From contig JAXLYG010000005.1 of the NCBI GenBank assembly GCA_046351535.1, positions 101,334 to 165,333 of the forward strand: a stretch of 64,000 nt of DNA, in the 5' to 3' direction. This document shows, piece after piece, positions 9,321 through 42,335 of the stretch. The position numbers and the translations under genes were made by a program. Under the pieces are notes generated by a model, which worked only from the letters and a program-made list of their open reading frames with translations, was not told the DNA's origin and made no database searches. Position 1 is the stretch's first letter. The number at the start of each line of letters is the position of its first letter. This DNA comes from Polyangiales bacterium (lineage in GTDB: Bacteria > Myxococcota_A > Polyangia > Polyangiales > Ga0077539).

Positions 9321-9438
9321 GTACTGCGACCTCCGAGGCCGCAGCCGGTGCACGGGCAGTGCCACGCGTGCACGCGCACGGAAATCAAGGGATGTCGCGT
9401 TTCCGACCGACGCTCCGACGCGCGAGACGACTTCTGTA

Positions 9439-9465: not shown

Positions 9466-9604
9466 CGTTGCGTTCGCCCGGTTTTCCGTGGGGATTTTGA
9501 ACGTTGAACGAAGAGACAGACAACGTCACGGAGTCATCGCACGCGCGACGTCTCGGTGAGTCTCAGCGGAGGGTTGCTCGAAGGCGCGGAGGGGAGCGCA
9601 GCGA

Positions 9605-9835: not shown

Positions 9836-9964
9836 CGCGATGGTGCCTTATCGAAAGGGTTCTCTGGGTGCCCCTATGGGTAGACACCCGAAGAGGGGGC
9901 GCTGTCATAGACGGGCGTCGAGCTTCTGTCAATCGCTCGGTTGGAGCCGCGCGAAGTAGGGATC

Positions 9965-12529
<2,565 letters not shown>

Positions 12530-25740: not shown

Positions 25741-28700
25741 TCAGCGCGCGGGCAGCGAGACGATGTGATCGAGGTGGAGCACCGGCGCCGGTGACCCCGC
25801 CGCGTCGAGGTCGAAGTAGATCACCACGTCGCCCGCGGGGATGCGGATGGGCACGCGCGACTCCTCCCAGCGCGGTGAGAGCGGGATCGTCGCCACGACG
25901 CGCGCCCCGAGCCGCAGCGGGACGCGCACCGGCGGACCGTCGTCGCGGCGCGCGCGGATCACCATGAGCCTCAAGCCTCCGCGCTGCGAGTAGAAGGTCA
26001 CGGGGAGCCTCCCCCCGTGGGCCTTTCCGATGCAGCTGTGGGCGCCGAGGTAGCGCCAGCCGAGGGTGTCCTCGTGGGGGCCGCAGGACTCGAACGCGTC
26101 GGGGGTGATCTCGACGGTGCGCGCGTCGAAGCCCTCGATGCGAGGCCCCACCACGCCGAGCGCGCCGAGGGCCTCGGCCGCGTAGCGCTCCGCCCGCGTG
26201 TGACGGATCGTGCTCAGGATCAGCGGGACGGCGCGTCGATCGCCGAGCATGCCGAGGGCCGCGATGGCGTTGGCGCGCGCGTCGTCGGTGGGGTCGTTGA
26301 TGGCCGTGCGCGCGAGCAGTTCGAAGAGGCTCGGGTCGCGCATCTGACCGAGCGCCAGCACCACCTGATACCGCACGTGATCGTCGGGGAAGATGGTCAT
26401 CAGGGGCTCGATCGCGCGCGGATCCGCGAGCGTGCCGAGCGCGCGGATCGCGTCGATCACCTGCGACTCCTCGGGGGACCACAGCGTCTCGATGAGGGCG
26501 TCGACGGCGGCGTGGTCGCCGAGGCGGGCGAGGGCCAGCGCCGCGCGTCGCCGGAGCAGCGGGTCATCGCTCGTCACGAGGTCTCGGAGGAGGGGCGCGG
26601 CGGAGGCGTCTCCCGCGGCGCCGAGGGCCACGGCGGCGGCGTTGCGCACGGCGGCGGAGCGGTCTCGCAGGATCGGTCGCAGCGTGTCGATGAGCGAGCG
26701 GCGCGCGAAGCTCGCGAGGAGCTCGACGGCCTCGGTGCGCTCCTGCTCCGAGGCCCTGGGGTCACGCACGATCTCGGTGAGCCCGGGGATGGCCGCGCGG
26801 TCTCCGACGCGTGCGCGCGCCACGGCGCCGCGCGCGGTTCCGCGGTCTGCGAGGGACTCGAGCCACGCGGTCATGTCGGCGTGGAGCGACTCGCGCATCG
26901 CGAGCTCGGTGCCCGCGAGGTTGCGCCGCTCGCCGGGGTCGGCCGTGAGGTCGAAGAGCTCGTAGACGCCGAAGGTGAGGTCTGCGACGAGCTTCCACTG
27001 GCCGCGGCGCACCATCTTGCGGCTGTTGACCGTCGAGAACACGGGGGGAGAGTCGACGCCCGGTGTGGGCGGGCGGAGCATCCATCCCCGGAGGTCGCGC
27101 CCTCGCATCGTGGGCGCGGGCCGCGCGCCGGCGAGGGCCGCGAGCGTGGGCGCCACGTCGACGAGCTCCACGGGCGCGGTCACCCGCTGCGCGGTGAGTC
27201 CCGGCGCCGAGATCACCAGCGGCACCCTCACCTGCTCTTCGTAGAGCGTCGAGCCGTGATAGACGCCGCCGTGGTCGCCGAACTCCTCGCCGTGGTCCGC
27301 GGTGACGGCCACCACGAGCTCGCGCGCGAAGACGCGGCGCGCGTGGGTGAGCACGCGTCCCATCGCGGCGTCGATGTGCGAGACCGCGTCGTCGTACTGC
27401 GCGACGGGCGTCGGGCCGCTGCCCTGATAGGGCGCGTGGGCGTCGAAGAAGTGCACCCACATGAGGCTCGGGGCCTCGCCCCTCCGGACGATGTCGTCGA
27501 TCTCGCCGATGGCCGCGGCGGCCTGCTCGTCGGCGTTGCGGTCGACGTGCGTGGCGCGCGCGAAGCCGAAATCGTGCTCGCGGTAGCCCGTGAGGCGCTC
27601 TCCCTCGGTGAAGAAGATGCCCGTGGTGAAGAGCGCGGCGGTCTCGCGTCCGTTGGCGCGCATCACGTCGGCGAGCGTGGCGAGGGGCTGCGGCTGACCG
27701 AGCGCGAGCGTCTCGTGGAGGTACTCGCCCGTGTGCAGCGACGAGAGCGAGTAGCTCGAGTGCGGGGCCTGCGCGTAGGTGTTCACGAAGACCACGCCCT
27801 GCGCGGCGAGGCCGTCGAGGGTGGGCGTGAGCGAGCGCCCCGCGCGCGTGCGTCCGAGGCGGTCGGCCCGCATCGCGTCGACGGTGAAGAGGAACACGTG
27901 CGCCCCGGGGAAGCTCGGCGCGTTGACGTTGAGGTCGGCGTGTCCCGCGCGCTCTCGCGCGTAGCGGGCGCGGCGCAGGGCGAGCGAGTCGACGGCGCCG
28001 GTGGCCTCGGGCCTGCGCGCGACGGAGGCGACGGCGAAGGCCGCGTGACGCACGAAGGGGGCGTGGACGCCGAAGACCTCGGCGCGCACGTTGGGCCAGC
28101 GATCGAGGGCGCCCCAGGCCCACGGGGCCGCGAGGGCCGCGACGATCCCGGCGATGGCCGCGGCGCCCGGGAGCGAGCGGACGATCCACCACGCGGCGGG
28201 CGTGAGGGCCGCGACGGCGAAGGCGTTGGCGAGCAGCGTCGCGACGCCGAGGCCCGTGTGCAGGTACTCGTAGAGCCTCGGAAAAACACGGTGATCGAGG
28301 CCGTGCAGCGCCCAGCCCGCGAAGAGCGAGACCGCGCCGATGAGCGCGCGCTGCCGCACGGGGCGCGACGGGAGCGTCATGGCGAAGCGGCGGAGCCCCG
28401 CGAGCGCGAAGGCGCACACGGTCACGAGCACCACCGCCGTGAGCGGCTGGAGGAGCCACTGCATCGGGAGGCGCTTCATGCGTCCGCCCGTGAAGAGCGC
28501 GTGGGCCACGGACGCGAGGGGGAGCGCGACGAGCGCGGCCATGCGGACGGGCGCGCGGCGCTCCCACCGCGCGAGGAGCGCGTCGAGCGACGAGACCGTC
28601 GCTGAGAGCAATGCGCCCACGGCGTAGCCCCCGAGGAGGAGCACCGCGGCCAGACGCGCGCGATCGACGCCGGGCGCGAGCCAGAACACCGTGCTCGCAA

Positions 28701-28821
28701 GGTCGGCCTGACCCGAGAGCGTCCCCGCGACGGCGCCGATGAGGAGCGCCCTCGCCACGACGAAGCGCGGTGGCGTGGTCTCGATCACCGCCATGCGTGG
28801 CGCTGATTGCGCCCGTTGCAT
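25741..28821 (-). CDS. large membrane-anchored sulfatase-like (alkaline-phosphatase superfamily) protein with C-terminal HEAT repeats
   Basis: N-terminal ~330 aa hold multiple TM helices. Central sulfatase-like domain (LFTVDAMRADRLG...VFVNTYAQAPHSSYSLSSLHTGEY...VTADHGEEFGDHG) lacks the Cys/Ser-x-P-x-R FGly motif. About 8 HEAT-like repeats follow (AVRNAAAVALGAAGD, PLLRRRAALALARLGD and so on). The ORF track's start at 28860 overlaps tRNA-Cys, so I use ATG 28821 (MQRAQS); 28794 is an alternative. Confidence 0.55.
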   Translation of the reverse strand: MQRAQSAPRMAVIETTPPRFVVARALLIGAVAGTLSGQADLASTVFWLAPGVDRARLAAVLLLGGYAVGALLSATVSSLDALLARWERRAPVRMAALVALPLASVAHALFTGGRMKRLPMQWLLQPLTAVVLVTVCAFALAGLRRFAMTLPSRPVRQRALIGAVSLFAGWALHGLDHRVFPRLYEYLHTGLGVATLLANAFAVAALTPAAWWIVRSLPGAAAIAGIVAALAAPWAWGALDRWPNVRAEVFGVHAPFVRHAAFAVASVARRPEATGAVDSLALRRARYARERAGHADLNVNAPSFPGAHVFLFTVDAMRADRLGRTRAGRSLTPTLDGLAAQGVVFVNTYAQAPHSSYSLSSLHTGEYLHETLALGQPQPLATLADVMRANGRETAALFTTGIFFTEGERLTGYREHDFGFARATHVDRNADEQAAAAIGEIDDIVRRGEAPSLMWVHFFDAHAPYQGSGPTPVAQYDDAVSHIDAAMGRVLTHARRVFARELVVAVTADHGEEFGDHGGVYHGSTLYEEQVRVPLVISAPGLTAQRVTAPVELVDVAPTLAALAGARPAPTMRGRDLRGWMLRPPTPGVDSPPVFSTVNSRKMVRRGQWKLVADLTFGVYELFDLTADPGERRNLAGTELAMRESLHADMTAWLESLADRGTARGAVARARVGDRAAIPGLTEIVRDPRASEQERTEAVELLASFARRSLIDTLRPILRDRSAAVRNAAAVALGAAGDASAAPLLRDLVTSDDPLLRRRAALALARLGDHAAVDALIETLWSPEESQVIDAIRALGTLADPRAIEPLMTIFPDDHVRYQVVLALGQMRDPSLFELLARTAINDPTDDARANAIAALGMLGDRRAVPLILSTIRHTRAERYAAEALGALGVVGPRIEGFDARTVEITPDAFESCGPHEDTLGWRYLGAHSCIGKAHGGRLPVTFYSQRGGLRLMVIRARRDDGPPVRVPLRLGARVVATIPLSPRWEESRVPIRIPAGDVVIYFDLDAAGSPAPVLHLDHIVSLPAR

Positions 28822-28833
28822 CGGAGGTTCACC

Positions 28834-28907
28834 GGAGGTGCGGATGGGATTTGAACCCACGTATCACGGTTTTGCAAACCGTTGCCTGGCCACTTGGCTA
28901 CCGCACC
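28834..28907 (-). tRNA. tRNA-Cys (anticodon GCA)
   Basis: Reverse complement is GGTGCGGTAGCCAAGTGGCCAGGCAACGGTTTGCAAAACCGTGATACGTGGGTTCAAATCCCATCCGCACCT. Anticodon stem-loop ACGGT-TTGCAAA-ACCGT, T-loop TTCAAAT, CC encoded. Confidence 0.85.
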
Positions 28908-29954: not shown

Positions 29955-30104
29955 GGGCGCGGAGCTATACCGCGAGATCGGGGAGCGTGGTCTGCGATGT
30001 CGTCAACGGTCGCGCGCGTCGCGTTTGCGCTTCACCGCCCTTCGCGCCCGTTGGTACCGTGCGCTCTCCATCTGCCTCGAAGCCCACAAGGAGCAGCGAC
30101 GACA

Positions 30105-30893
30105 ATGCCCTCGCAGGTACTCACCGACACCCAGAAGCTCGCGGAAGACATCGTGACCGCCATCGACGCCCACACCGCGGAGCTCGACGCGAGCGCCTCC
30201 GCGCGCCTCGCGGCGGACCTCCATCACGGAGAGAAGTGGCCCTCCGTGGCGCTGCTGCTCGCGCTCACGAGCCGCCGCGTGAAGCGCACCCTCGGCGCCC
30301 ACGTCGACGCCGAGCGGGCCCTCGACGCCGAGCGCGCCGATGACGTCGAGCCCCGCGCCGAGCGCGACAAGCAGGCCCTCGCGGTCTACGCGCAGCTCAA
30401 GAAGATCAAGGGCGCCGTCGAGTCTCTCTTTGGTGACTCCGTCGTGCGGAAGCTCCAGCTCCCCGCGGAGCTACCGCGCGACCCGGCGAAGCTCTGCCTC
30501 GCGGGCGATGACGTCACGAGCGCGATCAAGCGCGAGAAGCTCCCGGCGCCGCAGGTCGAGGGCATCGGGAGGGTTGACTCCAAGGCGTGGATCGAGGCGC
30601 TTGCGAAGCCCCTCGCGGATCTCAAGAAGGCCCGCGCGAAGGTCAACCTCGAAGACAAGGAGCTCGCCGCCGCGCTCGCCGCCCGCGACCGCGCCCAGGA
30701 GGCGCTCTCTGAAGCCATGGTCGAGGCCCTCACCTTCGCCCGCGCCGCGGCCAGCCTCGCAGACAAGGACTCCCTCTTCGACGGGCTCCGCGCCACGATC
30801 GACTATGGAAGCTCCCCGTCAGGCGGAGACGCGCCCGCGGATCCCGTGAACCCCGATCCGCCAGGCGGACCGACGCCCGCGCGCCCTGCGTGA
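30105..30893 (+). CDS. hypothetical protein, predicted coiled-coil, Ala/Leu/Asp-rich
   Basis: ATG 30105 is preceded by AAGGAG. The real gene is the downstream 262 codons of the 707-aa ORF; the upstream part of that ORF is antisense to the thioesterase gene. Confidence 0.45.
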   Translation: MPSQVLTDTQKLAEDIVTAIDAHTAELDASASARLAADLHHGEKWPSVALLLALTSRRVKRTLGAHVDAERALDAERADDVEPRAERDKQALAVYAQLKKIKGAVESLFGDSVVRKLQLPAELPRDPAKLCLAGDDVTSAIKREKLPAPQVEGIGRVDSKAWIEALAKPLADLKKARAKVNLEDKELAAALAARDRAQEALSEAMVEALTFARAAASLADKDSLFDGLRATIDYGSSPSGGDAPADPVNPDPPGGPTPARPA

Positions 30894-31010
30894 GCGTTGC
30901 CTTTCGCGTAGACGCCCGTTCGCGCCCGCTGCGAACGCCTCCCTGTCCGGCAGGAACGCGTTCGCGGCGCGGTGCGAGGTGTACCTACATCGCCCTCGGA
31001 GCCTTTTCGT

Positions 31011-31721
31011 TCACCGCGTGTAGGTCACCGTGGCCGAGGCGCTCGCGAGCGTGATCGCGCGGATCGCGTCGGTGAGCACCGCGCCGGTCACATCCCTCGC
31101 GCGCGTGGGGAGCGTCGGGTGCGCCGAGAGCGCATACACCGTGTACGTGTACATCATCGCGCCGGGGCCCTGAGAGCACGGCGGCGAGTAGGCCAGCGCC
31201 GGTCCGTCGCTCGTGATGCCCGCGACGCCGACGCCCGTCGAGCCCACCGCGAGCGCGCGCGTCGCGCCGGGGATGCTGTGAAGCACCCAGTTCCACTTGA
31301 GGCCGTCGCGCGCGAGGGTGGTCATCATCACGGCGAACTCGGTGGTTCCCGCGGGGACGCCCGACCACGCGAGCGGAGGGCTGTGCCCCACGCCGTCGCA
31401 GGTGTACTCGGCGGGGAGCGTCCCGTGATCGACGAAGGCGCTGCTCGTGAGCGTGAACGCGCCCGTTGAAGCATCCGCGGGAGAAGCATCCGCGGACAGA
31501 GCATCACTCGCGGTCGCGTCACTCGCAGTCACGTCGCTCGCGGTCGCGTCGTTCGCGGTCGCGTCACTCGCGGTCGCGTCGCTCGCGGTCACGTCGCTCG
31601 CGGTCACGTCGCTCGCAGTCACATCCGTGATGCTCGCGTCTTGCGGCGTCGCGGCGTCGGGCGCGTCGCTCGAAGAGCACGCAGCCAGCAGCGCGCAGAG
31701 CGGGAGAGCGAGGTACTTCAC
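31011..31721 (-). CDS. YbhB/YbcL (PEBP-family) lipoprotein with an N-terminal TASDV tandem-repeat linker
   Basis: Lipobox LLAACSS. About 10 copies of T-A-S-D-V/A. PEBP core (FVDHGTLPAEYTCDGVGHSPPLAWSGVPAGTTEFAVMMTTLARDGLKWNWVLHSIP). Confidence 0.7.
   Translation of the reverse strand: MKYLALPLCALLAACSSSDAPDAATPQDASITDVTASDVTASDVTASDATASDATANDATASDVTASDATASDALSADASPADASTGAFTLTSSAFVDHGTLPAEYTCDGVGHSPPLAWSGVPAGTTEFAVMMTTLARDGLKWNWVLHSIPGATRALAVGSTGVGVAGITSDGPALAYSPPCSQGPGAMMYTYTVYALSAHPTLPTRARDVTGAVLTDAIRAITLASASATVTYTR
31470..31640. repeat. 15-nt tandem repeat (about 10 units of gtcacgtcgctcgcg) encoding a TASDV linker
   Basis: Direct tandem repeats are visible in the sequence between 31470 and 31640. 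Confidence 0.7.
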
Positions 31722-32404
31722 GCGGGCCTTCCCTCGCTGCGGCGGGCGCGCAGCGTCGTGACGATCGCGGTCGCGCCGAAGAGCGCCGTGAGCGCCGTGA
31801 GCCAGTGGTTGCGAGAGGTCGCGGGCGGCGCGGCGGGCGCGCGCGCGGTCACCGCGGGCTCATGCGACGGAGGGCGCTGCGCGGTCATCACGTCGAAGCT
31901 CGCGGGGCGGCCGGGCCAGGCGTAGCGCGTCGCGGGCTGCACGAAGGACACGACCACCGGACCGAGCGCCGCGGGCGCCGAGAGCGTCACCACACGCGCA
32001 CCGGGAACCGCGCGCCGCGCTTCGAGGCGCATCCGAACGCGCTCGCCGTGGAGCTGACCCGCGGCCGAGAGCGTCGCGGCCATCGCGCGAAGCTCCGGGG
32101 CGGAGATGAAGCCCGTGAGCGCGAGCGGGAGCGACGCGCCGTCGACGCGGAGCGAGGTGCCCTCTTCGATCTCGCGACGGAGCCGCGCGCAGGTCGTCGC
32201 GAGCGCCTCGTCGGTGCTCGTCGCCACGGCGGTGGGCGTTCCGTCGACGAGGAGAAAGAGGTCCCAGTCGGCGGCCACTTCGAGGTGGTCGTCGCGCAGG
32301 GTCACGCGCGCGGTGCCCTCTTCGAGCGGGTGCGCCATCGACGGAACACCCGCCGCGAGGCACGCCGCGAGGAGCGACGCGCGGAGCAGGGAGCGCGCGG
32401 TCAT
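31718..32404 (-). CDS. hypothetical exported protein with a C-terminal TM anchor; predicted mature N-terminus HPLEEG
   Basis: Real start ATG 32404 (MTARSLLRASLLAACLAAGVPSMA), overlapping the upstream gene's stop as ATGA. Pro/Ala-rich linker, then the C-terminal helix WLTALTALFGATAIVTTL. The stop overlaps the PEBP gene's start. Confidence 0.5.
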   Translation of the reverse strand: MTARSLLRASLLAACLAAGVPSMAHPLEEGTARVTLRDDHLEVAADWDLFLLVDGTPTAVATSTDEALATTCARLRREIEEGTSLRVDGASLPLALTGFISAPELRAMAATLSAAGQLHGERVRMRLEARRAVPGARVVTLSAPAALGPVVVSFVQPATRYAWPGRPASFDVMTAQRPPSHEPAVTARAPAAPPATSRNHWLTALTALFGATAIVTTLRARRSEGRPA

Positions 32405-33534
32405 CGCATCCCCCGGCAGTAGGTTCCGCGCTGCGTGACGCCGCGCGTGGTGTACGAGGCGTCGGTGAAGTCCCAGCAGTTGGCCGTCGTCGCGGGGCGA
32501 TACGAGATCGAGTACGTGCGACCCATGTGCTCGTAGGTCATCGTGTGCGTCCCGTCGGCGGCCTCGACGTAGCGGAGGTTCATCACGCCGCCGGGCGCCT
32601 TCTCGCCAGGGGGCCGTCCGCCTCCGCCGCCGAGTCGGTTGAGGGGCGTCACGCGCGGGGCCATCGCGGTGTCGAAGGCCCCCGTGAGGCACTGCACGAT
32701 GTACGGGTGCGTCGTCGACGTGTGGTAGCGGAAGCCGAACACGGGGTCGCGCTGGCCGTTGCAGACGTCGAGCGTCCCCGCGGCGATGGGCGTCCCGTCG
32801 GGGTTGTCGTTGCCGTAGATGGGATAGCCGTCGAAGGCCCACCCGAGGATCGCGCTCGCCCCGCGGTTGCGCATCGCCGCGATCATGCACGAGGGAGACG
32901 CGTGGTAGTGGTAGTCGTCGCCGCGCCCCGAGTGACCGCCGCACTGGTCGAGCTCGCCCGTGAGCACCGTGTCGAAGCGGGGATCGTAGGCCGAGAGGTC
33001 GAGCGTCCCCTGCGAGCTGTAGTCGTAGATGGGCACGCCGTTGACGGCCACGCCGAGGGCCGCGTCGATGGAGATGGGCGCCGCGGCGCGCGTCGGCGCC
33101 AGCGTCACGGGCGACGAATACCCGGGCGCAGGAACGGGCACCTGGTCGTTGGTGCCGGTGATCCCGTTCATCTTCACGTGGTCGGGGTACGTGTCGGAGA
33201 CGATGTACGCGAAGCGCTCGTCGCAGCGCACCGTCACGCGATCGGCGAAGCCCGCGGCGCGCACCGACCCGGTCACCGCGGCGCAGCGCTCGGAGGGGGT
33301 GAGCATCGTCGACGCGTCGGACGGAGCGTCGGTGCTCGCATCGGGCGTCACGTCGGGCGAGGCATCGGGCGTCACGTCGGGCGAGGTGTCGGGCGAGGTG
33401 TCGGGCGTGACGTCTGCGGCGACGTCGGTGACGGTGCTCGCGTCGGTGGCCGTCGCGGCGTCGGAGCAGCCCGCGATCGCGAGCGCCGCCACGAGCGAAG
33501 AGAAACGCGTTCCTGCGTGTGTGCGCGTGGGCAT
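32401..33534 (-). CDS. YHYH-domain lipoprotein with a DVTPD tandem-repeat linker
   Basis: Lipobox AIAGCSD. Repeats DVTPDTSPDTSPDVTPDASPDVTPDAS. YHYH signature (VNGVPIYDY ... CGGHSGRGDDYHYHASPSC). Start probably M14 (MPTRTHAG). Confidence 0.7.
   Translation of the reverse strand: MPTRTHAGTRFSSLVAALAIAGCSDAATATDASTVTDVAADVTPDTSPDTSPDVTPDASPDVTPDASTDAPSDASTMLTPSERCAAVTGSVRAAGFADRVTVRCDERFAYIVSDTYPDHVKMNGITGTNDQVPVPAPGYSSPVTLAPTRAAAPISIDAALGVAVNGVPIYDYSSQGTLDLSAYDPRFDTVLTGELDQCGGHSGRGDDYHYHASPSCMIAAMRNRGASAILGWAFDGYPIYGNDNPDGTPIAAGTLDVCNGQRDPVFGFRYHTSTTHPYIVQCLTGAFDTAMAPRVTPLNRLGGGGGRPPGEKAPGGVMNLRYVEAADGTHTMTYEHMGRTYSISYRPATTANCWDFTDASYTTRGVTQRGTYCRGMR
33315..33440. repeat. tandem repeats encoding (D/A)VTPD(T/A)SP units in the YHYH gene
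   Basis: gtcacgtcgggcgaggc/tgtcgggcg units are visible in the sequence. Confidence 0.6.
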
Positions 33535-33591
33535 CGGTCGTGCGCTTTCTCCCGCGTGTCGCGGGTCATTCATCGTGGCGAACGGAGCGCG

Positions 33592-34779
33592 TCAGGGCGC
33601 GGCGCCGTCTCGTTCGCAGAGGTCACGGAGCCGCCGCAGCTCGGTCGCGCCCGCGCGTTCGCCTTCGCTCGTCGAGAGCGCGATGACGCGGGCGCAGTCT
33701 CCGCGGAGCCTCGCCGCGCGCGCGAGCAGCGTCGCGACCTCGCCGCGGTGCGCCCCCGAGGGGTAGCCGCGGAGGTAACGCTCGGCCGAGGCGAGCGCGG
33801 CGGGCTCGTCTCCCGCGCGGCGGAGGGCGACCACGCGGAGCCACCCCGCGTCGTCGGCGCGCTCGTCGTGAGGTTGCTGCCGTTCGAAGTCTTCGAAGTC
33901 CGCCGCGGCCGTGCGGAAGTCGCCCCGGCCCATCGCTGCAACACCCGACGCGAAGCGCTGAAAGGGCGCCTCCGCGTCGGCGGATTCGCTGTGAGCGCTG
34001 CCGTGCGTGTGCGCGCCGTGCTGCGCGGGAGGAGGCGTCGCGGACGCGACCACCGCGGGGACGTTCGCGGCGGGAGGCGTCTGCGCTGCGACGACGGGGG
34101 GATCGTCGGGGACCTTCCAACGCTGACCCGCGGCGATGAGGCGCTCGGGCTCGTGCGCGACGCGGAGCGCGACGAGGCCCTCGTACACGGTGACGCGCAC
34201 GGTGTGTCCGCCGTGGGCCTCGACGACGAAGCGCGTGCCGCGGACCTCGAGCTCACCGTCGGGCAGCGCCACCACGAAGCGATGCCCCGCGCGCTGATGC
34301 GGAACGCTCACCTGGAGCGCGCCCTCGCTGAGCCGCACGGTCTCGCGGTCGGGCTCGACGGAGCGCGTCCAATGGGCCTCGCCGACGATCTCGATGCGCG
34401 CGGTGGGGTCCGTCGGCGTGCCCGTCGTTCGGTGGTCTCCGCGTCGCGCGAGGATCACCGCCGCCACGGCGACCGCGCCCGCGAACGAGAGCGCGCCCGC
34501 GAGCGCGAAGGGCGTCACGCTCCGTCGAGGCTGCTCTTCTCCGTGCGCCGCCGCGAGGAGGAGCGCGGCGCGCGCGCGGTGTCGCTGGAGGTCGCTCACG
34601 GGGGCCTTCGCGTGTCGCCGGGCCTCTTCGCGGAGGCTGATCCAACGCTCGCGGCGCGCGCGGCAGTCGGCGCACTGCGCGAGGTGTCGCGCGACGCGGT
34701 CGACCTCACGGGCGCTGAAGCGTCCGTCTTCGGCGGCCTCGACCTCGGGCCAGCGCGGGCACACTTCGCCTTCGCTCAC
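33592..34779 (-). CDS. anti-sigma factor: zf-HC2-like N-terminus, single TM helix, periplasmic FecR-like domain
   Basis: GTG start at 34779 overlaps the sigma gene's stop (GTGA). N-terminus HLAQCADCRARRERW, TM helix ALAGALSFAGAVAVAAVIL, FecR motif LEVRGTRFVV. The C-terminus is TPR-like and Arg-rich. Confidence 0.7.
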   Translation of the reverse strand: MSEGEVCPRWPEVEAAEDGRFSAREVDRVARHLAQCADCRARRERWISLREEARRHAKAPVSDLQRHRARAALLLAAAHGEEQPRRSVTPFALAGALSFAGAVAVAAVILARRGDHRTTGTPTDPTARIEIVGEAHWTRSVEPDRETVRLSEGALQVSVPHQRAGHRFVVALPDGELEVRGTRFVVEAHGGHTVRVTVYEGLVALRVAHEPERLIAAGQRWKVPDDPPVVAAQTPPAANVPAVVASATPPPAQHGAHTHGSAHSESADAEAPFQRFASGVAAMGRGDFRTAAADFEDFERQQPHDERADDAGWLRVVALRRAGDEPAALASAERYLRGYPSGAHRGEVATLLARAARLRGDCARVIALSTSEGERAGATELRRLRDLCERDGAAP

Positions 34780-35345
34780 GGCACACCTCCAGACGGGTCT
34801 TCGAGCATCCGTTTGCGCGCGTGGTGGAGCCGCGTCCACACGGTGGCGACGGGGATCGCGAGCTCGCGCGCGGCCTCGTCGCACGACAGCTCGTGCACCT
34901 CGACCAGCACGTACGCGGCGCGCATCTTCTCGGGGAGCGCGGCGACCTGCGCGGCGAAGCGCTCCCACCGCTGCGCGGCGATGCGGTCGTCTTCGGGCGT
35001 CTGCGCGTGCGCGCTCGGCGCGACGTGCGTGAACCGCGTGACCGCGCGGAGCCATCGGGTGATCGAGCGCCGACGATCGGCCGCCACGCGCCACGCGGTG
35101 GCGAGCACCCAGGGCTTCGCCGAGGGGCGTCCGTCGTAGCGCGCGGCCATCGACGAGAGGCGGAGGAAGGTGTCCTGCGCGACGTCGTCGGCGTCGGCGG
35201 GTCGCACGCCCGCGTGGAGCGCCACGCTTCGCACGGCCTCGTAATAGCGGTCGAAGAGGGCGCCGAGGGCGTCGAGCTCGCCGCGCGCCATCGCGGCGAA
35301 GAGCTCCGCGTCGGTGGCGTCGGCGCGCGTCGTCGAGCGTCGCAT
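34776..35345 (-). CDS. ECF-family RNA polymerase sigma factor
   Basis: Real start ATG 35345 (MRRSTTRADA). Region 2 DVAQDTFLRL...WVLATAWRVAADR. Region 4 MRAAYVLVEVHELSCDEAARELAIPVATVWTRLHHARKRM. The upstream part of the 730-aa ORF is non-coding antisense. Confidence 0.8.
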   Translation of the reverse strand: MRRSTTRADATDAELFAAMARGELDALGALFDRYYEAVRSVALHAGVRPADADDVAQDTFLRLSSMAARYDGRPSAKPWVLATAWRVAADRRRSITRWLRAVTRFTHVAPSAHAQTPEDDRIAAQRWERFAAQVAALPEKMRAAYVLVEVHELSCDEAARELAIPVATVWTRLHHARKRMLEDPSGGVP

Positions 35346-35350
35346 GAGCT

Positions 35351-36382
35351 TCACAGCGCGCCTCCGTAGAGGGCGCCGACCATGAGCCCCGCGCTCCAAG
35401 AGGGAGGCGTCGGGACCGACGCGCTCGACCCCGCGGCGAAGACCGTCACGGGCGCGACGTCGGCGTCGACGGTGACCGCGAGCGCGAGGCCGTGCCAGTC
35501 CGCCGAGCGCCACCGCGCGATGGCCCCGAGGCGCACCTGCACGAAGGTCTCCTTCTGTCCGGGGAGCAGCGCCTGATCGCGCCATGTGTAGCTGTTGGTC
35601 GCCACGGTGACGCCCGCCTCGGCGCGGCCGCGGAGCGCGCGGGCCCCCCAGCTCGCGCCGATGCCCAGCGCGCCGACGTCGAGGAGGTAGCGCCCCGGTC
35701 CGCGGTCGACGAGGCGGTACGTCCACGGCTCGACGCGCCCCCACGCGAAGAGCGACCACGCGCGGATGCGGAACGCCACCGTCGCGCGCATCGCGAACGA
35801 CGTGTACGAGGGCGTCGCGCCGAGGCGCATCCCGAGGTCGAAGATCCCTTCGATGAACGAGGTGGGGGCGGGGCGCTCCCGCACGACGGGGGCGGGCGGC
35901 GGAGGCGGCGGAGCCGGCAGCGGCAACGGCGCGGGCGCGCGAAGCGGCTGCGCGGCCGTGTGTGAAGGCGCGGGCTCGGCTTCGAGCGCGGGGAGCGCGT
36001 CGAGGATGAGCGCGGCCTGGAGCGTCGCGGTGAGCTCCGCGGGCGCGGCGACGTGACGGCGCAGCGTGGTGCCCGAGGGGAGCGCGACGTCGAGCGCCGC
36101 GACGCCCGCCTCGTCGAGCGTGAAGCGCACGGTCGCGCCGACGCAGTGCCACGGTCGGTCGGAGCCCGTGAGCGACGCGCGCATCTCGCGGATCGCGTCG
36201 GCCCAGCGCGGCACCTCGAGCGACGGCGCGACGGAGAGCGTCGAGGCGGGGCAGCGGGTCTGCGCCGCGGGCGCCGTGGTGAACGCGAGCGCGCAAAACC
36301 CCAGCGCCACGGGCGACGGCGTCGGTCTCGGTCTCGCGGGGTGTGTGCGACGCGGGCTCACGGTCGAGGGTGCTCTCATCAC
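35351..36382 (-). CDS. hypothetical exported protein with a Pro-rich linker and a C-terminal beta-barrel-like domain
   Basis: Signal-like N-terminus (VALGFCALAFTTAPAAQ). PLPLPAPPPPPPAP linker. The C-terminal ~170 aa show alternating aromatic/small residues and end GLMVGALYGGAL. The gene ends 6 nt before the ECF sigma start. Confidence 0.5.
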   Translation of the reverse strand: MMRAPSTVSPRRTHPARPRPTPSPVALGFCALAFTTAPAAQTRCPASTLSVAPSLEVPRWADAIREMRASLTGSDRPWHCVGATVRFTLDEAGVAALDVALPSGTTLRRHVAAPAELTATLQAALILDALPALEAEPAPSHTAAQPLRAPAPLPLPAPPPPPPAPVVRERPAPTSFIEGIFDLGMRLGATPSYTSFAMRATVAFRIRAWSLFAWGRVEPWTYRLVDRGPGRYLLDVGALGIGASWGARALRGRAEAGVTVATNSYTWRDQALLPGQKETFVQVRLGAIARWRSADWHGLALAVTVDADVAPVTVFAAGSSASVPTPPSWSAGLMVGALYGGAL

Positions 36383-36543
36383 CCCTTTGGCCGATCGCGG
36401 TCGAGACCTTCACGCGGAGGCGCGACGTAATTTCTTCGGCGCGCCGTGAAGGCGTCGGGCGCGGGGGGCCAATGGCCTCGTGAAGGGGGCGCGATGCGCT
36501 CCCGAAGACGCCGCGCGTCGCGCGAGAAACGAGAGGACGGTCG

Positions 36544-38241
36544 ATGGCAGAGCGCAGGGGCTTCATCGCAGCGGAGCGCGGTCGGATCGCGGCGGTCTTC
36601 GCGATCACGGCGCAGCTCGCGGGCGTCGCGTGCACGACGACACCGGCCGCAGACGCGGGGGTCGACGCCCCCGTCACGCCCATCGACGTGACGAGCGACA
36701 CGGCCCCGCCCGACGCCGCGACGGACGCTCCCCTCGACGCCTCGGAGATGGACGCGGTGACGGACGCGGTGACGGACGCGGTGACGGACGCTCCCACGAT
36801 GGACGCCGGGCGCGACGGGGGGATGCGGCGCGACGGCGGCGCGAGCGACGCGTCGGGCGACGTGACGATCACGATGTCCGTCGACGTGTTCACCGACGAC
36901 GCGTTCACGGGCCCCGAGCTGCTCGCGCGGCCCACCGACCGCTCGATCGCGGTGCACGTCGTCCCCACGCGCGCCGTCGAGATCTACTACGAGTACGGCG
37001 CGTCGCCGGGGGTCTACAGCGGGCGCACCGAGACGCAGTCGGTCGCCGCGCGCACGCCCGCGCTGACGGTGCTCTCGCCCCTCACGGCGAACACCCGGTA
37101 CTACTACCGCCTGCGGTACCGGGCGCCCGGCGAGGCGACCTTCGCGTCGCGCGAGGAGCACTCGTTCTTCACGCAGCGCGCGCGAGGTTCGACCTTCACC
37201 TTCACCGTGCAGGCCGACTCGCACCTCGACGACCGCTCGGACTACTCGGTCTACGCGAGCACGCTCACCAACGTGCTGCGCGACAGGCCCGACTTTCACG
37301 TCGACCTCGGCGACACGTTCATGTGCGAGAAGCACACGACGCCCTTCATGGCCGAGACCCTCGCGGCCATGGACGCCCCCACCGTCGACGCCCGCTACGC
37401 CTTCGACCGCGCCAACTTCGCGCGCATCGGCCACTCGGTGCCCGTCTTCCTCGTGAACGGAAACCACGAGGGAGAGTCGGGCTGGTTCCTCGACGGGACG
37501 GCCAACAACATCGCGGTGTGGGCGACGCTCTCGCGCAAGCGGTACTTCGCCAACCCCGAGGCCGACGCGTTCTACTCGTCGACCACCGACGCGGAGCCCA
37601 TCGTCGGCACGCGCCAGGCGTTCTACGCCTTCGAGTGGGGCGACGCGCTCTTCATCACCCTCGACCCGTACTGGTACACCCGCGCGCGTCCCACCGCGGA
37701 TCGCTGGCGCTGGACCCTGGGTGAAGCGCAGTACCAGTGGCTCCGTCGCGTGCTCGCGGGGAGCACCGCGACGCACAAGTTCGTCTTTCTGCACCACCTG
37801 CTCGGCGGCGTGAACGCCGAGGCCCGCGGCGGCGTCGAGGCTGCTCCCTTCTACGAGTGGGGCGGGCTCAACGAAGACCGCACGCAGGGCTTCGCCGCGC
37901 ACCGCCCGGGGTGGCCCGCGCCCATCCATCAGCTCCTCCGCGACGCGCACGTCACCGCTGTTTTTCACGGCCACGACCACGTCTACGTGCGCCAGGAGCT
38001 CGACGGGATCGTCTATCAGGAGGTCCCCCAGCCGAGCGCGTCGAACTTCACCAACGGCGCCACGATCGCCGCCGAGGGCGGCTACGACAGCGGCGTCGTG
38101 ATGAGCAGCAGCGGCCACCTGCGCGTGGTCGTGTCTCCGTCGAGCGTCGTCGTCGACTACGTGCGCGCGACGCCTCCCGCGGGCATGCGCATCCCCGACG
38201 GCGGCGTCGGCGGCTACTCGTACACCCTCGTCCCTCGCTGA
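36544..38241 (+). CDS. purple-acid-phosphatase-like calcineurin-type metallophosphoesterase lipoprotein
   Basis: Lipobox LAGVAC, AVTD repeats, N-terminal FN3-like domain, then the GDTF ... GNHE ... GHDH metallophosphatase motif set. Confidence 0.7.
   Translation: MAERRGFIAAERGRIAAVFAITAQLAGVACTTTPAADAGVDAPVTPIDVTSDTAPPDAATDAPLDASEMDAVTDAVTDAVTDAPTMDAGRDGGMRRDGGASDASGDVTITMSVDVFTDDAFTGPELLARPTDRSIAVHVVPTRAVEIYYEYGASPGVYSGRTETQSVAARTPALTVLSPLTANTRYYYRLRYRAPGEATFASREEHSFFTQRARGSTFTFTVQADSHLDDRSDYSVYASTLTNVLRDRPDFHVDLGDTFMCEKHTTPFMAETLAAMDAPTVDARYAFDRANFARIGHSVPVFLVNGNHEGESGWFLDGTANNIAVWATLSRKRYFANPEADAFYSSTTDAEPIVGTRQAFYAFEWGDALFITLDPYWYTRARPTADRWRWTLGEAQYQWLRRVLAGSTATHKFVFLHHLLGGVNAEARGGVEAAPFYEWGGLNEDRTQGFAAHRPGWPAPIHQLLRDAHVTAVFHGHDHVYVRQELDGIVYQEVPQPSASNFTNGATIAAEGGYDSGVVMSSSGHLRVVVSPSSVVVDYVRATPPAGMRIPDGGVGGYSYTLVPR
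36750..36795. repeat. three or four 15-nt units (gacgcggtgacggac) encoding DAVTD in the metallophosphoesterase gene
   Basis: Direct repeats are visible in the sequence. Confidence 0.6.
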
Positions 38242-38266
38242 ATCACAGCCACCACGGAGCACCGCC

Positions 38267-39775
38267 ATGACCGACCCTTCGAAGAGCCCCGTGTCTCGCC
38301 TCGCGCTCCTCGTCATCACCCTCGCGGGCTGCGGAAACTCAATCGCAGAGCCCTCGCCCGACGCGAGCGCGCAGGTCGACGTGCGACCCGCGAGCGACGT
38401 CCTTCCCTCGTCCGATGTCACCGCCTCCGATGTCACGGTCACCGACGTCACCGTCACCGACGTCACGGTCACCGACGCGCCGTCCTCCGACGCGCCCTCG
38501 ACGGGACGTCATCCCAACTTCATCGTCTTCCTCGCCGAGGCCAACGGGTGGACGAGCACCTCGGTGCTCCAGGACGAGGCGATTCCCGCGTCGCGCAGCG
38601 GCACGATCCAGACGCCGAGCCTCGACCGCATCACCGCACAGGGGATGCGCTTCTCGAACTTCTACGCCCCGTCGCCGCGGTGCATGCCGACGCGCGCGAG
38701 CCTCATCAGTGGGATCTCGCCCGCCGCGCTGCACATGACCTTCATCCCCGAGGCGCGCAACGACGGCGCGGCGACGGGCAACGTGGTCACGCCCACGACC
38801 ATCACCACGCTCCCTGTCGAGACGCCGACGGTGGCGTCGCTCCTCCGCGCGGCGGGGTACGGCACGGCGCACTTCGGCAAGTGGCACGCGGGCAACATTC
38901 ACCCGTCGATGTACGGCTTCGACATGAGCGACGGGCCGACGGCCAACCGTGGACCCGACAACGTCGACCACCCCAACCCCGCGCAGGCGTACGCGATCGC
39001 CGACAGGGCCATCGCGTTCCTCAACACGCAGGCCGCGGCGCGGCGACCGTTCTACCTCCAGGTGTCGAGCTACGGCGGCAAGGACGAGGTCGACTCGCGG
39101 CCCGAGACCTACGCGATGGCCGCCGCGAGGCTCCCCGGCGCGAACCCGCGCGACATCGCGCTCGCCGCCGTGCAGATGGAGATGGACATCAACATCGGCC
39201 GCGTCCTCACGCGCCTCGACGAGCTGGGGCTCACGGGCGACACGTACGTGTTCTTCACGTCGGATCACGGCGCGCAGGGCCCCTCGTCGAACCCGCCGCT
39301 CCAGGGCAGCAAAGGGACGGTCTGGGAGGGCGGCATCCGCGTTCCCCTCTTCGTGCGCGGACCCAACGTGCGCATGGGGGTCTCATCGCGCGTGCGCACC
39401 ACGGGGGTCGACCTGCTCCCGACGATCATGTCGCTCGCGAACGTCACCGCGCTCCCTGCCCGTCTCGAAGGCGGCAACCTCGCGCCGCTTCTCCTCGGAA
39501 CCGTCAACGAGGTGCGCCGTTCGCGCGACGAGCTCGTCGTCCACTTTCCCCACTACGACATGGACCCGCTCGGCCCCGCGTCGACGATCCTCTTCGGCGA
39601 CTACAAGCTCACGCGCTACTACGAGACCGGCTCGCAGCGGCTCTACAACGTCGTGACCGACTTCGCCGAAGCGACGGACCTCGCCCCGCGCGACCCGGCT
39701 CGTGTGACCGACATGGCCCGCCGCCTCGACGAGTACCTCGCCGCGGTCAACGCCCAGATCCCCACGCGTCGCTGA
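38267..39775 (+). CDS. arylsulfatase-family (Cys-type, FGE-dependent) lipoprotein
   Basis: Lipobox LAGCG. VTVTD repeats. Sulfatase signature SPRCMPTRASLISG (C-x-P-x-R) and a second motif GKWH. Confidence 0.8.
   Translation: MTDPSKSPVSRLALLVITLAGCGNSIAEPSPDASAQVDVRPASDVLPSSDVTASDVTVTDVTVTDVTVTDAPSSDAPSTGRHPNFIVFLAEANGWTSTSVLQDEAIPASRSGTIQTPSLDRITAQGMRFSNFYAPSPRCMPTRASLISGISPAALHMTFIPEARNDGAATGNVVTPTTITTLPVETPTVASLLRAAGYGTAHFGKWHAGNIHPSMYGFDMSDGPTANRGPDNVDHPNPAQAYAIADRAIAFLNTQAAARRPFYLQVSSYGGKDEVDSRPETYAMAAARLPGANPRDIALAAVQMEMDINIGRVLTRLDELGLTGDTYVFFTSDHGAQGPSSNPPLQGSKGTVWEGGIRVPLFVRGPNVRMGVSSRVRTTGVDLLPTIMSLANVTALPARLEGGNLAPLLLGTVNEVRRSRDELVVHFPHYDMDPLGPASTILFGDYKLTRYYETGSQRLYNVVTDFAEATDLAPRDPARVTDMARRLDEYLAAVNAQIPTRR
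38411..38480. repeat. tandem repeats encoding VT(A/V)(S/T)D units in the sulfatase gene
   Basis: gtcaccgacgtcacggtcaccgacgtcaccgtcaccgac. Confidence 0.6.
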
Positions 39776-41411
39776 TCGTCGGGTCCCACCGCCTCGCGCG
39801 CTCCAACCACATCGCGGCCTCGCGGTCTCTCCCCTCGACGCGCGCGAGCTCGTGCTGTCGCAGCGCGCCCGCGGGCTGATCGCAGGTCACGTCGAGCCAC
39901 TGCACGAGCGCCCGCCGCGCCTCGCGATCACCGCGGAGCGTCTCGCGCGTCGCCCACGCGCCGTCGACGACCACGACCCGAGACGCGTCGTGCCGCAAGC
40001 GCGTGAGCGCGTCGACGTGCGTCCCGTGCGAGACGCTCCGCGCGGCGGCGGCGCGCACCCACGGAGACCGATCTCGCAGCGCCGACGTGAACACCTCGTC
40101 GGCCTCGGGACGATCCGCCCACGGCGCGAGCATCGCGACGAGCGAGGCCCTCCACGCGTCGTTGTCCTCTCGCATCGCCAGCGACGCGAGCTCGCGGAGC
40201 ACCGAGGTATCGCCGCGCATCGCGCTCGCCACGACCCGCGCGCGACGGCGGACGGCGCCGTGGTGTCCCTCACCGAACCACGCCGTGACGTTCTCTTCGG
40301 CCCAGGTCACAGGGCGATCGGAGTGACAGCCGGAGCACGCGTTGGGCACGCCGAGCGCTCGCGTGAGCGTCGGATCGGGGATCGTGAAGCCGTGGTCCCT
40401 CCTCCGATCGCGCTGCATGTAGGTCGCCGCGGGCATGTGGCAGTTGACGCAGCGGGCGCCGTCGCTCGCCGCGGGGTGATGCGCGTGCGTCGCGTCGATG
40501 ACAGGAGCGCCTCGCGCGCCGTTGCCGTGGCACGTGAGGCAGAGTTCGTCGCGGGTGATGGGGGCGCGCAGTCTGCCCGAATGGGGATCGTGACAGTCGT
40601 TGCAGGAGACGCCGCGCTGTCCCATGCGGCTCAGCGAGAGGGAGGCGTATTCGAAGTCCTCGTCGGCGCACTGTCCGTCGGGGTGATACGCGCCGGGCGT
40701 GTCGGCGAGCGTGAGGCGGTAGTGGTCGTCGAAGCGCTCGCCCGCGCGGAAGGCTCCGCTCAGCTCCTCGCGTCGCGCGTGGCAGCTCGCGCAGGTGTCG
40801 GCGACGCGCGCTCGCCACGGGGGATTCTGCGAGCGTCGATGGCCCTCGGGCATCGCGCCGTGGCACTGCGCGCAGGCGACGCCTGCGGCGCTCCACGCGC
40901 TGCGGTACGCGTCGGAGCGCGCGTCGTAGCCCTTCACGAACCCGGTCGTGTGGCAGGCGGCGCACCAGGCGTTCCAGTTCATCCCGCGCTGCGTCCAGTG
41001 GCTCCACTCGTGGGGCGCCGGGCGGTCGGCGCCGAAGATCGAGAACCACTGTTTTTGCGATGGATCCCACGCGGGGTCGAGCACCTGCACGCGGCCGTCG
41101 GCGCGCGCGACGAGGTACTGCCGCAGGGGTTCGACGGCGATCACCGCGCGGAGGGGTTCACTGCGCAGCTCGGGCGAGAGCGCTCTCAGTGCCTCGGTGT
41201 CGCGCGCGTCGATGGGGCGCTGCGCCCTCGCGTGCTGCGATGCCTGCCAGGCTTCGTATTGCGCGCGGTGACAGGGCGCGCAGGGCCGCGCGACATCGGG
41301 CGCGGCGGAGCCCGGGGCCCCCACGTCGGTGAAGCGCGCGGGAGGCTCAGGGGTCGCGCGTCGACACCCCAGGGCCACGGCGAAGGCGAGGAGCGATCGC
41401 GCGAGGTTCAC
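39747..41411 (-). CDS. octaheme c-type cytochrome with a C-terminal HEAT-like repeat region
   Basis: Eight CxxCH motifs (CAPCH, CAACH, CAQCH, CASCH, CNDCH, CLTCH, CVNCH, CSGCH). Signal or lipobox LLAFAVALGC. Probable GTG start at 41411 preceded by GGAG; the ORF-track start is 41606. The 3' end overlaps the sulfatase gene by 29 nt. Confidence 0.65.
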   Translation of the reverse strand: MNLARSLLAFAVALGCRRATPEPPARFTDVGAPGSAAPDVARPCAPCHRAQYEAWQASQHARAQRPIDARDTEALRALSPELRSEPLRAVIAVEPLRQYLVARADGRVQVLDPAWDPSQKQWFSIFGADRPAPHEWSHWTQRGMNWNAWCAACHTTGFVKGYDARSDAYRSAWSAAGVACAQCHGAMPEGHRRSQNPPWRARVADTCASCHARREELSGAFRAGERFDDHYRLTLADTPGAYHPDGQCADEDFEYASLSLSRMGQRGVSCNDCHDPHSGRLRAPITRDELCLTCHGNGARGAPVIDATHAHHPAASDGARCVNCHMPAATYMQRDRRRDHGFTIPDPTLTRALGVPNACSGCHSDRPVTWAEENVTAWFGEGHHGAVRRRARVVASAMRGDTSVLRELASLAMREDNDAWRASLVAMLAPWADRPEADEVFTSALRDRSPWVRAAAARSVSHGTHVDALTRLRHDASRVVVVDGAWATRETLRGDREARRALVQWLDVTCDQPAGALRQHELARVEGRDREAAMWLERARRWDPTISDAWGSGR

Positions 41412-41497
41412 CGGACACTCCGTTGGCCGAAGGCGAGAGAGACCTTCACGGGGCAGCGCGCGTTGCGGGCGCCTCGCTTCAGGGTGAAGATGGGCGC

Positions 41498-42286: not shown

Positions 42287-42335
42287 CGCTCTGCACTCCC
42301 CCGCGCGCACCCTCGCAGGTACGCTCGCGCTCTCC

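Follow-up and report, generated by a model that had tools for sequence, protein, structure and literature searches.

The 64,000-nucleotide stretch of a Polyangiales bacterium genome analyzed here (contig JAXLYG010000005.1; hereafter the window; G+C content 70-77%) carries six consecutive minus-strand genes, g1 to g6. Three of them encode a predicted regulatory unit: an outer-membrane (OM) barrel-like protein (g1), an extracytoplasmic function (ECF) sigma factor (g2) and its anti-sigma factor (g3). The other three encode exported proteins: a YHYH-domain lipoprotein (g4), a protein predicted to begin with His after signal-peptide cleavage (g5, the His1 protein) and a PEBP lipoprotein (g6). This layout (Table 1) had been proposed in a sequence-only reading of the window, and an open reading frame (ORF) listing and a direct reading of the minus strand placed all six genes exactly where that reading had put them. 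The ATGA (32401-32404) and GTGA (34776-34779) junctions that it described are genuine stop/start overlaps, and a third one, GTGA at 31718-31721, joins g5 and g6. The gap between the g1 stop (35351) and the sigma ATG (35345), given there as 6 nt, is actually 5 nt. The start of g1 is ambiguous (GTG 36382, ATG 36379 or GTG 36361, all 5-26 nt 3' of the GGCCAA of a predicted -10 element), and so is that of g4: the first possible ATG, at 33573, is 18 nt from the g3 stop and has no ribosome site, whereas ATG 33534, 57 nt from that stop, is better placed (GGGAGAAAG upstream). Searches found no Rfam RNA element within 30000-42500 and no intrinsic terminator 3' of the PEBP gene.

Table 1. Genes, predicted promoters and flanking features of the g1-g6 locus (window coordinates).
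Feature	Position	Strand	Length	Description
g1	35351-36382	-	343 aa	Exported; alpha/beta domain, Pro-rich linker and predicted 8-stranded OM beta-barrel
g2	34776-35345	-	189 aa	ECF (group 4) sigma-70 factor
g3	33592-34779	-	395 aa	Single-pass anti-sigma: ZAS domain, transmembrane helix, periplasmic FecR, Pro/Ala linker, TPR (BamD/YbgF-like) tail
g4	32401-33573	-	390 aa	YHYH-domain lipoprotein
g5	31718-32404	-	228 aa	His1 protein: signal peptide, Ig-like beta-sandwich, Pro-rich linker, C-terminal transmembrane anchor
g6	31011-31721	-	236 aa	PEBP/YbhB-YbcL family lipoprotein
P1	36386-36413	-		Predicted ECF-type promoter, GTGAAGG-N14-GGCCAAA, upstream of the g1 operon
P2	36446-36473	+		Predicted ECF-type promoter, GTGAAGG-N14-GGCCAAT, adjoining P1 back to back and oriented toward the phosphatase-sulfatase pair
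P3	41422-41449	-		Predicted ECF-type promoter, GTGAAGG-N14-GGCCAAC (perfect), upstream of the multiheme cytochrome gene
Metallophosphoesterase	36544-38241	+	565 aa	Calcineurin-like/PhoD-like, exported; Metallophos 27.3 bits, PhoD 26.2 bits
Sulfatase	38267-39775	+	502 aa	Lipoprotein; PF00884 139 bits; CxPxR motif CMPTR
Multiheme cytochrome c	39747-41411	-		Lipoprotein with C-terminal HEAT repeats; Cytochrome_C554, C7, Paired_CXXCH, HEAT_2
Second sulfatase	25741-28860	-	1039 aa	Sulfatase domain and five HEAT_2 repeats
Uma2 ORF	41423-42286	+		Uma2-family putative endonuclease; as listed, begins inside P3
GH31	42144-44888	+		Glycoside hydrolase

The g5 product belongs to no Pfam or NCBIfam family, DUF6702 and DUF4198 included. 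Its translation contains a possible signal peptidase I site, SMA/HP (here and below, lipoboxes and signal peptides were read by eye from the translations), and ends in a hydrophobic helix followed by RARR, which agrees with the C-terminal transmembrane (TM) anchor that had been claimed for it; AlphaFold places this helix at residues 200-224. The protein also stood up well to structure prediction. The AlphaFold model, built from a 24-sequence alignment, is confident (mean pLDDT 85.5, above 90 over most of the domain) and consists of a signal helix, a beta-sandwich (residues 25-175) in which helices link strands 2 and 3, a disordered Pro-rich linker and the terminal TM helix. A Foldseek search with this model returned three significant proteins, Ang-1, ZrgA and PA4063, all of them metal-binding. 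The best structural match is the Cu-bound mono-histidine-brace protein Ang-1 (PDB 9GCE).

A word-indexed search of 5.8 billion proteins returned 39 g5 homologs, and a profile of the mature domain matched 223 proteins among 1.84 billion cluster representatives. The named source organisms of the g5 and g1 homologs in the word-indexed search are Polyangiales or Myxococcota. Nearly all of the 150 profile matches listed (of 223) are 76-279 aa long, with the domain directly after the signal peptide; about one fifth of the family, such as the 190-aa forms, lacks the TM anchor. Three longer matches are ORFs joined to YHYH or carry an unrelated C-terminal domain, and a HupE/UreJ fusion, sought among distant relatives, was not present among the 150 listed matches. 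Across the family, the Ala-His pair where cleavage is predicted occurs without exception (148 of 148 aligned members), and the His lies at about residues 17-37 in nearly all of them. Together with the structural match, this vindicates the emphasis that the sequence-only reading had placed on a mature N-terminal His; the CopC/YcnI likeness proposed alongside it fared less well, with neither a CopC nor a YcnI fold or family match found. Other residues of the mature domain are also conserved, namely R14 (R37 of the window protein; 147/148), D15 (D38; 133/148), D25 (D48; 132/148) and H17 (H40; 110/148). Judged from the hairpin register of the model, D48 should lie near His25, the predicted His1, with R37, D38 and H40 at the hairpin's opposite end.

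Ang-1, named "anglerase", is the N-terminal domain of HupE/UreJ-2 proteins (RbAng-1a, PDB 9GCE; Franco Cairo et al., Nat Commun 2025, PMC12537917). It binds Cu through a mono-histidine brace of His1 and Asn41 (Kd ∼74 nM) and is proposed to fish metal for the fused permease (PMC12537917). Like Ang-1, g5 is exported and membrane-tethered, has His as its first residue after predicted signal-peptide cleavage, and is modeled as an Ig-like beta-sandwich in which inserted helices separate strand 2 from strand 3. Unlike Ang-1, it has no HupE/UreJ-2 permease, with one C-terminal TM helix or none in its place; its obligate partner is a YHYH protein, which has not been reported for Ang-1; and it shows its own set of conserved residues in the mature domain (R14, D15, H17 and D25). 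In ZrgA and PA4063 (PDB 8EZW, 8F1B, 7AHW), Zn is bound by disordered loops rich in His and by internal His/Glu residues, and the proteins are encoded in Zur-regulated ABC-transporter operons (PMC9820375), whereas g5 has no His-rich loop, no transporter neighbor and an invariant N-terminal His. The DUF6702 and DUF4198 proteins are N-terminal-His metal-binding proteins encoded beside metalloenzyme genes; the neighbors of DUF6702 are M1 peptidases and HAD hydrolases, and DUF6702 proteins are proposed to act in metal transport (PMC12537917). g5 follows the same general pattern, in which the gene of a small secreted protein with His1 adjoins genes for metal-dependent proteins, but the partner enzyme at its locus is YHYH, usually with PEBP. 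On the strength of the model, g5 appears to represent a new free-standing family with an anglerase fold and an N-terminal His. It falls outside the Ang-1 family as defined because it lacks the permease fusion and any detectable sequence similarity, but it most plausibly works like Ang-1.

The profile search also recovered variants of the g5 architecture. In the metagenomic protein P0057 (457 aa), a single ORF joins YHYH directly to the g5 domain (junction ...TRAPHVHPLDLSTARISL...). Both the C-terminal region of YHYH and the signal peptide of g5 are missing from it, so that the His would not be N-terminal; the ORF could represent a genuine fusion, a deletion or an artefact of assembly. P0086 (445 aa; positions 5001-6338 of locus L021) is a g5 member with an extra domain of ∼230 aa after the TM helix; the protein as a whole has no Pfam match.

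The assignments of g4 and g6 in the sequence-only reading were borne out by Pfam, with both above cut-off: g4 matches YHYH (PF14240) at 73.5 bits against a cut-off of 25, and g6 matches PBP/PEBP (PF01161) at 58.7 bits against 24. g4 has the lipobox IAGC and a low-complexity D/T/P/S tether. In the alignment, eight Cys, H132, H214, H222, H224 and H284 are invariant, as are the GRGDDYHYH and RYHTS motifs; the eight Cys fit an oxidizing compartment. Across loci where g5 is only 35-60% identical, YHYH is 56-81% identical. A search with g4 gave 894 homologs at E<=1e-10, with 2 fused to PEBP among the 120 listed; the PDB sequence search returned low-complexity noise only and no solved relative. The YHYH domain is widespread, occurring in bacteria, jumbo phages and diatoms, and also in phage tail proteins. 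It has been predicted to be a His3-Asp Zn-dependent hydrolase (PMC7824862), and this prediction is the sole functional statement on YHYH in the literature searched; no characterized member or solved structure was found in the literature and database searches.

The g6 protein scored 30.9 bits against the TIGR00481 subfamily, under its cut-off of 57.75, and is therefore a divergent PEBP member. It has the lipobox LAAC and a tether of DVTAS-type repeats. PEBP follows YHYH-g5 in the Polyangiales loci and is fused to YHYH in locus L016 and in proteins P0306 and P0308, the last from Psychromonas arctica (L022). In PEBP, YHYH, the phosphatase and the sulfatase alike, the lipoprotein tether consists of short D/V/T/A/S/P low-complexity repeats (DVTAS, DVTPDTSP). 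These tethers lie at 31480-31650, 33300-33450, 36700-36800 and 38400-38480, and their length varies between close relatives.

The analysis of related genomes separates the durable parts of the locus from the local ones. Exact-protein look-ups supplied the contexts, together with a scan of the genomes of GTDB species, and tblastn of nine window proteins served to map them; all relatives except Psychromonas arctica are metagenome assemblies. YHYH and g5 are adjacent in every informative locus (L001-L012, L014-L019, L021-L023), and their start and stop codons overlap in the loci with returned gene calls. The nine-gene layout of the window recurs in a Myxococcota metagenome-assembled genome (MAG) at 89-97% protein identity (L005). 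In a Polyangiales MAG (L001/L007), YHYH-g5-PEBP lies on the opposite strand, convergent to g1-sigma-anti-sigma, followed by the phosphatase, sulfatase and cytochrome genes as in the window. The two units are also convergent in a further Polyangiales metagenome assembly (L002), with two extra genes between them. Byssovorax sp. (L014) has a 45%-identical sigma factor and an anti-sigma, after which two phosphatase paralogs and then YHYH-g5-PEBP are encoded on one strand.

Outside these genomes the module travels in other company. A 41% G+C locus (L016) encodes a single Big_2-PEBP-YHYH polypeptide followed by g5. Metagenomic loci carry PEBP, g5 and YHYH (L017) or YHYH and g5 (L019), and Oligoflexus sp. 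(L023) likewise has YHYH and g5. Two loci have a two-component system in place of the sigma pair: metagenomic L021 (PEBP, a histidine kinase with HAMP/HisKA domains, an OmpR-type response regulator, YHYH, g5) and Psychromonas arctica L022 (the PEBP-YHYH fusion P0308, a g5 homolog, a histidine kinase, a response regulator). The sulfatase next to the phosphatase is conserved in L001/L007 and L005, and metallophosphoesterase homologs recur beside the YHYH module in L009, L012 and L014. The regulatory and cargo units stay neighbors in all four genomes that have both.

These comparisons support the expectation that the genes would be co-localized in relatives for YHYH and g5, and qualify it for the operon as a whole: the six genes are tightly packed here, but they are not a conserved unit, being convergent or separated in L001/L007 and L002. 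On comparative sequence grounds, the durable units are [g1-sigma-anti-sigma] and [YHYH-g5-PEBP]. Because L001/L007, L002 and L014 arrange these two units differently, the six-gene operon of the window is best described as a lineage-specific fusion of them. The core, judged in the same way, is the pair of YHYH and the His1 protein, usually with PEBP, and the regulator is interchangeable.

Several relatives carry additional genes at these loci. In L001, a PAP2 phosphatase gene (6108-6827) lies directly upstream of YHYH, and beyond it (639-5318) is a P450-UbiA-polyprenyl synthase cluster. In L002, a 340-aa ORF without a Pfam match (9305-10327, plus strand) follows PEBP, and a 672-aa Cys-rich protein with 15 STIG1-like repeats (10329-12347, minus strand) follows the anti-sigma. 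In L003 (4071-7498) and also L004, which represent the 190-aa g5 group without a TM anchor, the genes after the YHYH-g5 pair encode, in place of PEBP, a 699-aa beta-propeller-like protein and a 437-aa LVIVD-repeat protein, and an OmpA-family protein is encoded ahead of the pair.

The regulatory unit was assigned from its domains. g2 contains Sigma70_r2 (PF04542, 47.8 bits) and Sigma70_r4_2 (PF08281, 48.5 bits) and scores 62.3 bits against the NCBIfam sigma70-ECF model TIGR02937 (cut-off 42.9); with only sigma-2 and sigma-4 domains and a small size (189 aa), it has the features of ECF group 4. The domain matches and the GTGA overlap support the ECF sigma/anti-sigma pair as originally claimed, and the same coupling is found in L001 and L002. 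Pfam identifies zf-HC2, a central FecR domain (PF04773, 37.7 bits) and YfiO/TPR_16 in g3. The zf-HC2 match (PF13490) is slightly under its cut-off (21.9 against 22.2 bits), and the translation shows a ZAS motif of the form HxxxCxxC with an upstream Cys (C7 ... H32-LAQ-C36-AD-C39). The description of g3 as a FecR-type anti-sigma did not survive. Only the central PF04773 domain is FecR-like, between a ZAS/zf-HC2 N-terminus and a TPR tail; Pfam finds no match to FecR's own N- and C-terminal domains, and g3 reaches 15.4 bits with the NCBIfam FecR equivalog, whose cut-off is 385. As g3 is a ZAS-FecR-TPR anti-sigma rather than one of FecR-type cell-surface signaling, a TonB-dependent transducer is not expected, and none was found among the ORFs scanned at 25.7-44.9 kb, nor in L001 or L002.

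The g1 product matches no Pfam or NCBIfam family, and the word-indexed search gave 14 homologs. Its AlphaFold model is weaker than that of g5 (mean pLDDT 68) and comprises an alpha/beta domain at about residues 47-127 with an invariant RPWHC, a disordered Pro-rich linker and a C-terminal part modeled as an 8-stranded OM beta-barrel; a further conserved Cys occurs near the mature N-terminus. The Pro-linker plus beta-barrel-like organization read from the sequence is thus predicted by AlphaFold as well, at this lower confidence. The unit shares with FecI-FecR-FecA and ECF-ZAS pairs the sigma-2 and sigma-4 domains, a co-transcribed single-pass anti-sigma with HxxxCxxC, the PF04773 domain and an apparent autoregulatory promoter. 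It differs from FecI-FecR-FecA in the TPR tail of its anti-sigma, in the lack of a TonB-dependent transducer among the ORFs examined, and in the predicted 8-stranded barrel protein with a periplasmic domain that is co-transcribed upstream of the sigma gene. The ECF267 group has been mentioned with a "FecR-like anti-sigma with TPR" (Casas-Pastor et al. 2021). By its domain composition, the sigma/anti-sigma pair appears to be an ordinary representative of a known kind rather than a FecIR-type surface-signaling system.

Set side by side, the sequences upstream of g1 and upstream of the YHYH units that are transcribed on their own share a bipartite motif, GTGAAGG-N14-GGCCAAC. The pattern GTGAAG-N15-GGCCAA has 3 exact matches in the 64-kb window against 0.00 expected (100 shuffles), and there is no fourth window site within one mismatch of the motif's 14 specified bases. 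The three sites are P1, P2 and P3 (Table 1); P1 answers the suggestion that an ECF promoter motif might lie upstream of 36382. The cytochrome gene is convergent to the phosphatase-sulfatase pair, and its probable start, GTG 41411 (VNLARSLLAFAVALGC), is 11 nt 3' of the GGCCAA of P3. The phosphatase and sulfatase had previously been noted as divergent neighbors of the operon. Both genes were confirmed, but they are not merely adjacent, the motif being common to them and the cytochrome gene.

Conservation of the motif provides further evidence. Copies occur at equivalent positions in L001/L007, L002 and L005: P1 and P2 equivalents are present in L001, L002 and L005, and P3 equivalents in L005 (1000-1025) and L007 (18978-19003), so the motif precedes the cytochrome gene in three genomes. 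L001 and L002 have an extra copy before the separate YHYH unit. In a four-genome alignment of the g1/phosphatase intergenic region, the only long invariant blocks are the halves of the two divergent motif copies. Its -35 element contains GAA, the spacer spans ∼16 nt and the -10 element is short; placed before the sigma factor's own operon, the motif looks like an autoregulated ECF promoter, and we infer one regulon of exported proteins behind it. In the window, no minus-strand site (with up to 3 mismatches) precedes YHYH within 33574-34000; the cargo genes must therefore be read through from P1.

Some candidates were set aside. Two-mismatch matches in L006 and L009 are weak and were not relied on. 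Leaderless YHYH mRNAs in L001 and L002 were considered and rejected: the GTG immediately following the motif in L001 is not in frame, and in both loci a GGAG-type ribosome site, 25-48 nt downstream, accompanies the called start. Very short leaders are seen only for the cytochrome gene and possibly g1.

The reading that we favor, with moderate probability, is that an ECF sigma/anti-sigma switch controls a local regulon of exported proteins in which g5 would be a periplasmic metal-delivery protein serving a YHYH metalloenzyme. The anti-sigma would hold the sigma factor through its ZAS domain until an envelope cue, possibly relayed by the g1 OM barrel protein, reaches its periplasmic FecR/TPR part and the sigma factor is released. 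The freed sigma factor would transcribe its own operon, the metallophosphoesterase-sulfatase pair and the multiheme cytochrome gene. The regulon would comprise four units, merged to three in the window genome, where transcription of the operon would read through into YHYH-His1-PEBP because an inversion presumably fused the units and the cargo unit lost its own promoter. Signal-peptide cleavage would expose His1 of g5, and the C-terminal helix would tether the protein to the inner membrane. There g5 may use a mono-histidine brace like that of Ang-1 to bind a transition-metal ion (Cu, Ni or Zn), and may hand the metal to the disulfide-rich YHYH partner, or take it from YHYH, rather than feed a fused permease. 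PEBP could be an accessory subunit that binds an anion or phospho-ligand. In a broader form, which we put forward tentatively as possible rather than probable, YHYH, the His1 beta-sandwich protein and PEBP would constitute an unrecognized, widespread three-component periplasmic metalloenzyme system, present in Polyangiales, Oligoflexus sp. and Psychromonas arctica as well as several metagenome lineages that are unclassified, with the free-standing anglerase relative as a dedicated YHYH metallochaperone. Different lineages would have placed this system under different envelope-signaling devices, an ECF sigma factor with an OM barrel partner here and two-component systems elsewhere.

Several observations weigh against the metal-delivery model and the regulon attached to it. 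The link to Ang-1 is one of predicted structure alone: identity in the structural alignment is 15-16%, and a g5 family profile run against all PDB sequences matched neither 9gce nor any other entry at E<=10. The hydrolase activity ascribed to YHYH is likewise a prediction only. On the regulatory side, the closest Polyangiales loci and L014 are the only ones in which the sigma pair occurs with the module, a two-component system or nothing being present elsewhere; the link between sigma factor and cargo is therefore lineage-specific. g1 is absent from L014, and the search around the 45%-identical sigma gene of that locus gave no convincing copy of the motif. The -10 half, GGCCAAC, also lacks the CGT core common in ECF promoters and could be the site of another regulator.

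Other explanations share part of this evidence. The genes under the motif could form a nutrient-scavenging or envelope-remodeling ester-hydrolase regulon, with the metallophosphoesterase, the sulfatase and YHYH as hydrolases, PEBP binding phospholipid or anionic head groups, and g5 as a mere tether or scaffold for YHYH. Phosphoesterases do recur at these loci (metallophosphoesterase paralogs in L009, L012 and L014, PAP2 in L001, Exo_endo_phos in Psychromonas), the phosphatase-sulfatase pair has the common promoter motif, PEBP is fused to YHYH in some lineages, and a second sulfatase is encoded nearby (Table 1). A tether role for g5, however, leaves the invariant Ala-His at the cleavage site (148/148) hard to explain; every significant structural match of g5 is a metal-binding protein, and about one fifth of the family has no TM anchor. 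We consider this version unlikely, while noting that a hydrolase regulon is compatible with metal delivery by g5 and does not exclude it. The module for metal stress or homeostasis suggested by the sequence-only reading, in which the anti-sigma would sense periplasmic Cu/Zn excess or shortage and the His1 protein, YHYH and PEBP would buffer, sequester or acquire metal, seems improbable. No metal transporter (P-type ATPase, RND, ABC, HupE/UreJ, CopCD) or metal sensor was found in the contexts examined, and the phosphatase, sulfatase and cytochrome of the putative regulon do not count among the classical metal-resistance genes. In its favor, periplasmic Cu and Zn binders make up the fold class of g5, ZrgA and PA4063 among them being Zur-regulated zinc-uptake accessories, and YHYH has many invariant His and Asp; g5 lacks the His-rich loops of ZrgA and PA4063. 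The ZAS zinc finger might also seem to favor metal sensing; it is, however, cytoplasmic and usually structural or redox-sensing rather than a periplasmic metal sensor.

A copper-dependent oxidative system, in which YHYH would be a redox metalloenzyme that receives its metal from the His1 protein and its electrons from the multiheme cytochrome, would account for the Cu-binding histidine brace of the closest structure to g5 and for the cytochrome lipoprotein under the same motif in three genomes. It is nevertheless very unlikely: neither Ang-1 nor Ang-2 showed substantial activity as an oxidase or peroxidase (PMC12537917), no cytochrome is listed among the genes of the distant loci L003, L016 and L021-L023, and the sole published prediction found for YHYH is a Zn hydrolase. 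Chance juxtaposition, that is, six genes packed together without a common function, could be argued from the differing relative orientation of the sigma pair and the cargo unit between genomes. Yet the units remain neighbors in all four genomes with both, the common motif has a chance expectation of 0.00, and the cargo genes are adjacent or fused in distant lineages; with the synteny, the motif and the PEBP-YHYH fusions, this explanation is effectively refuted, and its probability is close to nil.

With regard to the metal-delivery model, N-terminal-His anglerase proteins were first described in 2025, and the gene neighborhoods of the related Ang-2 are enriched in metallophosphatases (PMC12537917). 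The YHYH/His1/PEBP trio was not found in the literature searched. The g5 family would extend the anglerase fold with His1 to free-standing proteins paired with an enzyme rather than a permease. An invariant partner with a metal-chaperone-type fold, together with the recurrent PEBP fusion, suggests concrete hypotheses on the cofactor and partners of YHYH. If the three-component system proves true, the YHYH domain would gain its first functional handle and an Ang-type His1 protein a first client enzyme, and Psychromonas arctica, a named species with a genome assembly, is a possible test organism. For research on ECF sigma factors, the locus provides a compact in silico regulon with four predicted promoters, and the unusual architecture of a predicted small OM barrel protein with a periplasmic domain co-transcribed upstream of the sigma gene. 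Through g1, a FecR-domain anti-sigma could receive an input from the outer membrane that does not involve TonB.

Further genes lie close to the putative regulon. No motif copy was seen upstream of the gene for the 1039-aa sulfatase-domain protein, whose HEAT repeats echo those at the C-terminus of the multiheme cytochrome. The far side of the cytochrome gene is flanked by the Uma2-family ORF and the GH31 glycoside hydrolase gene.

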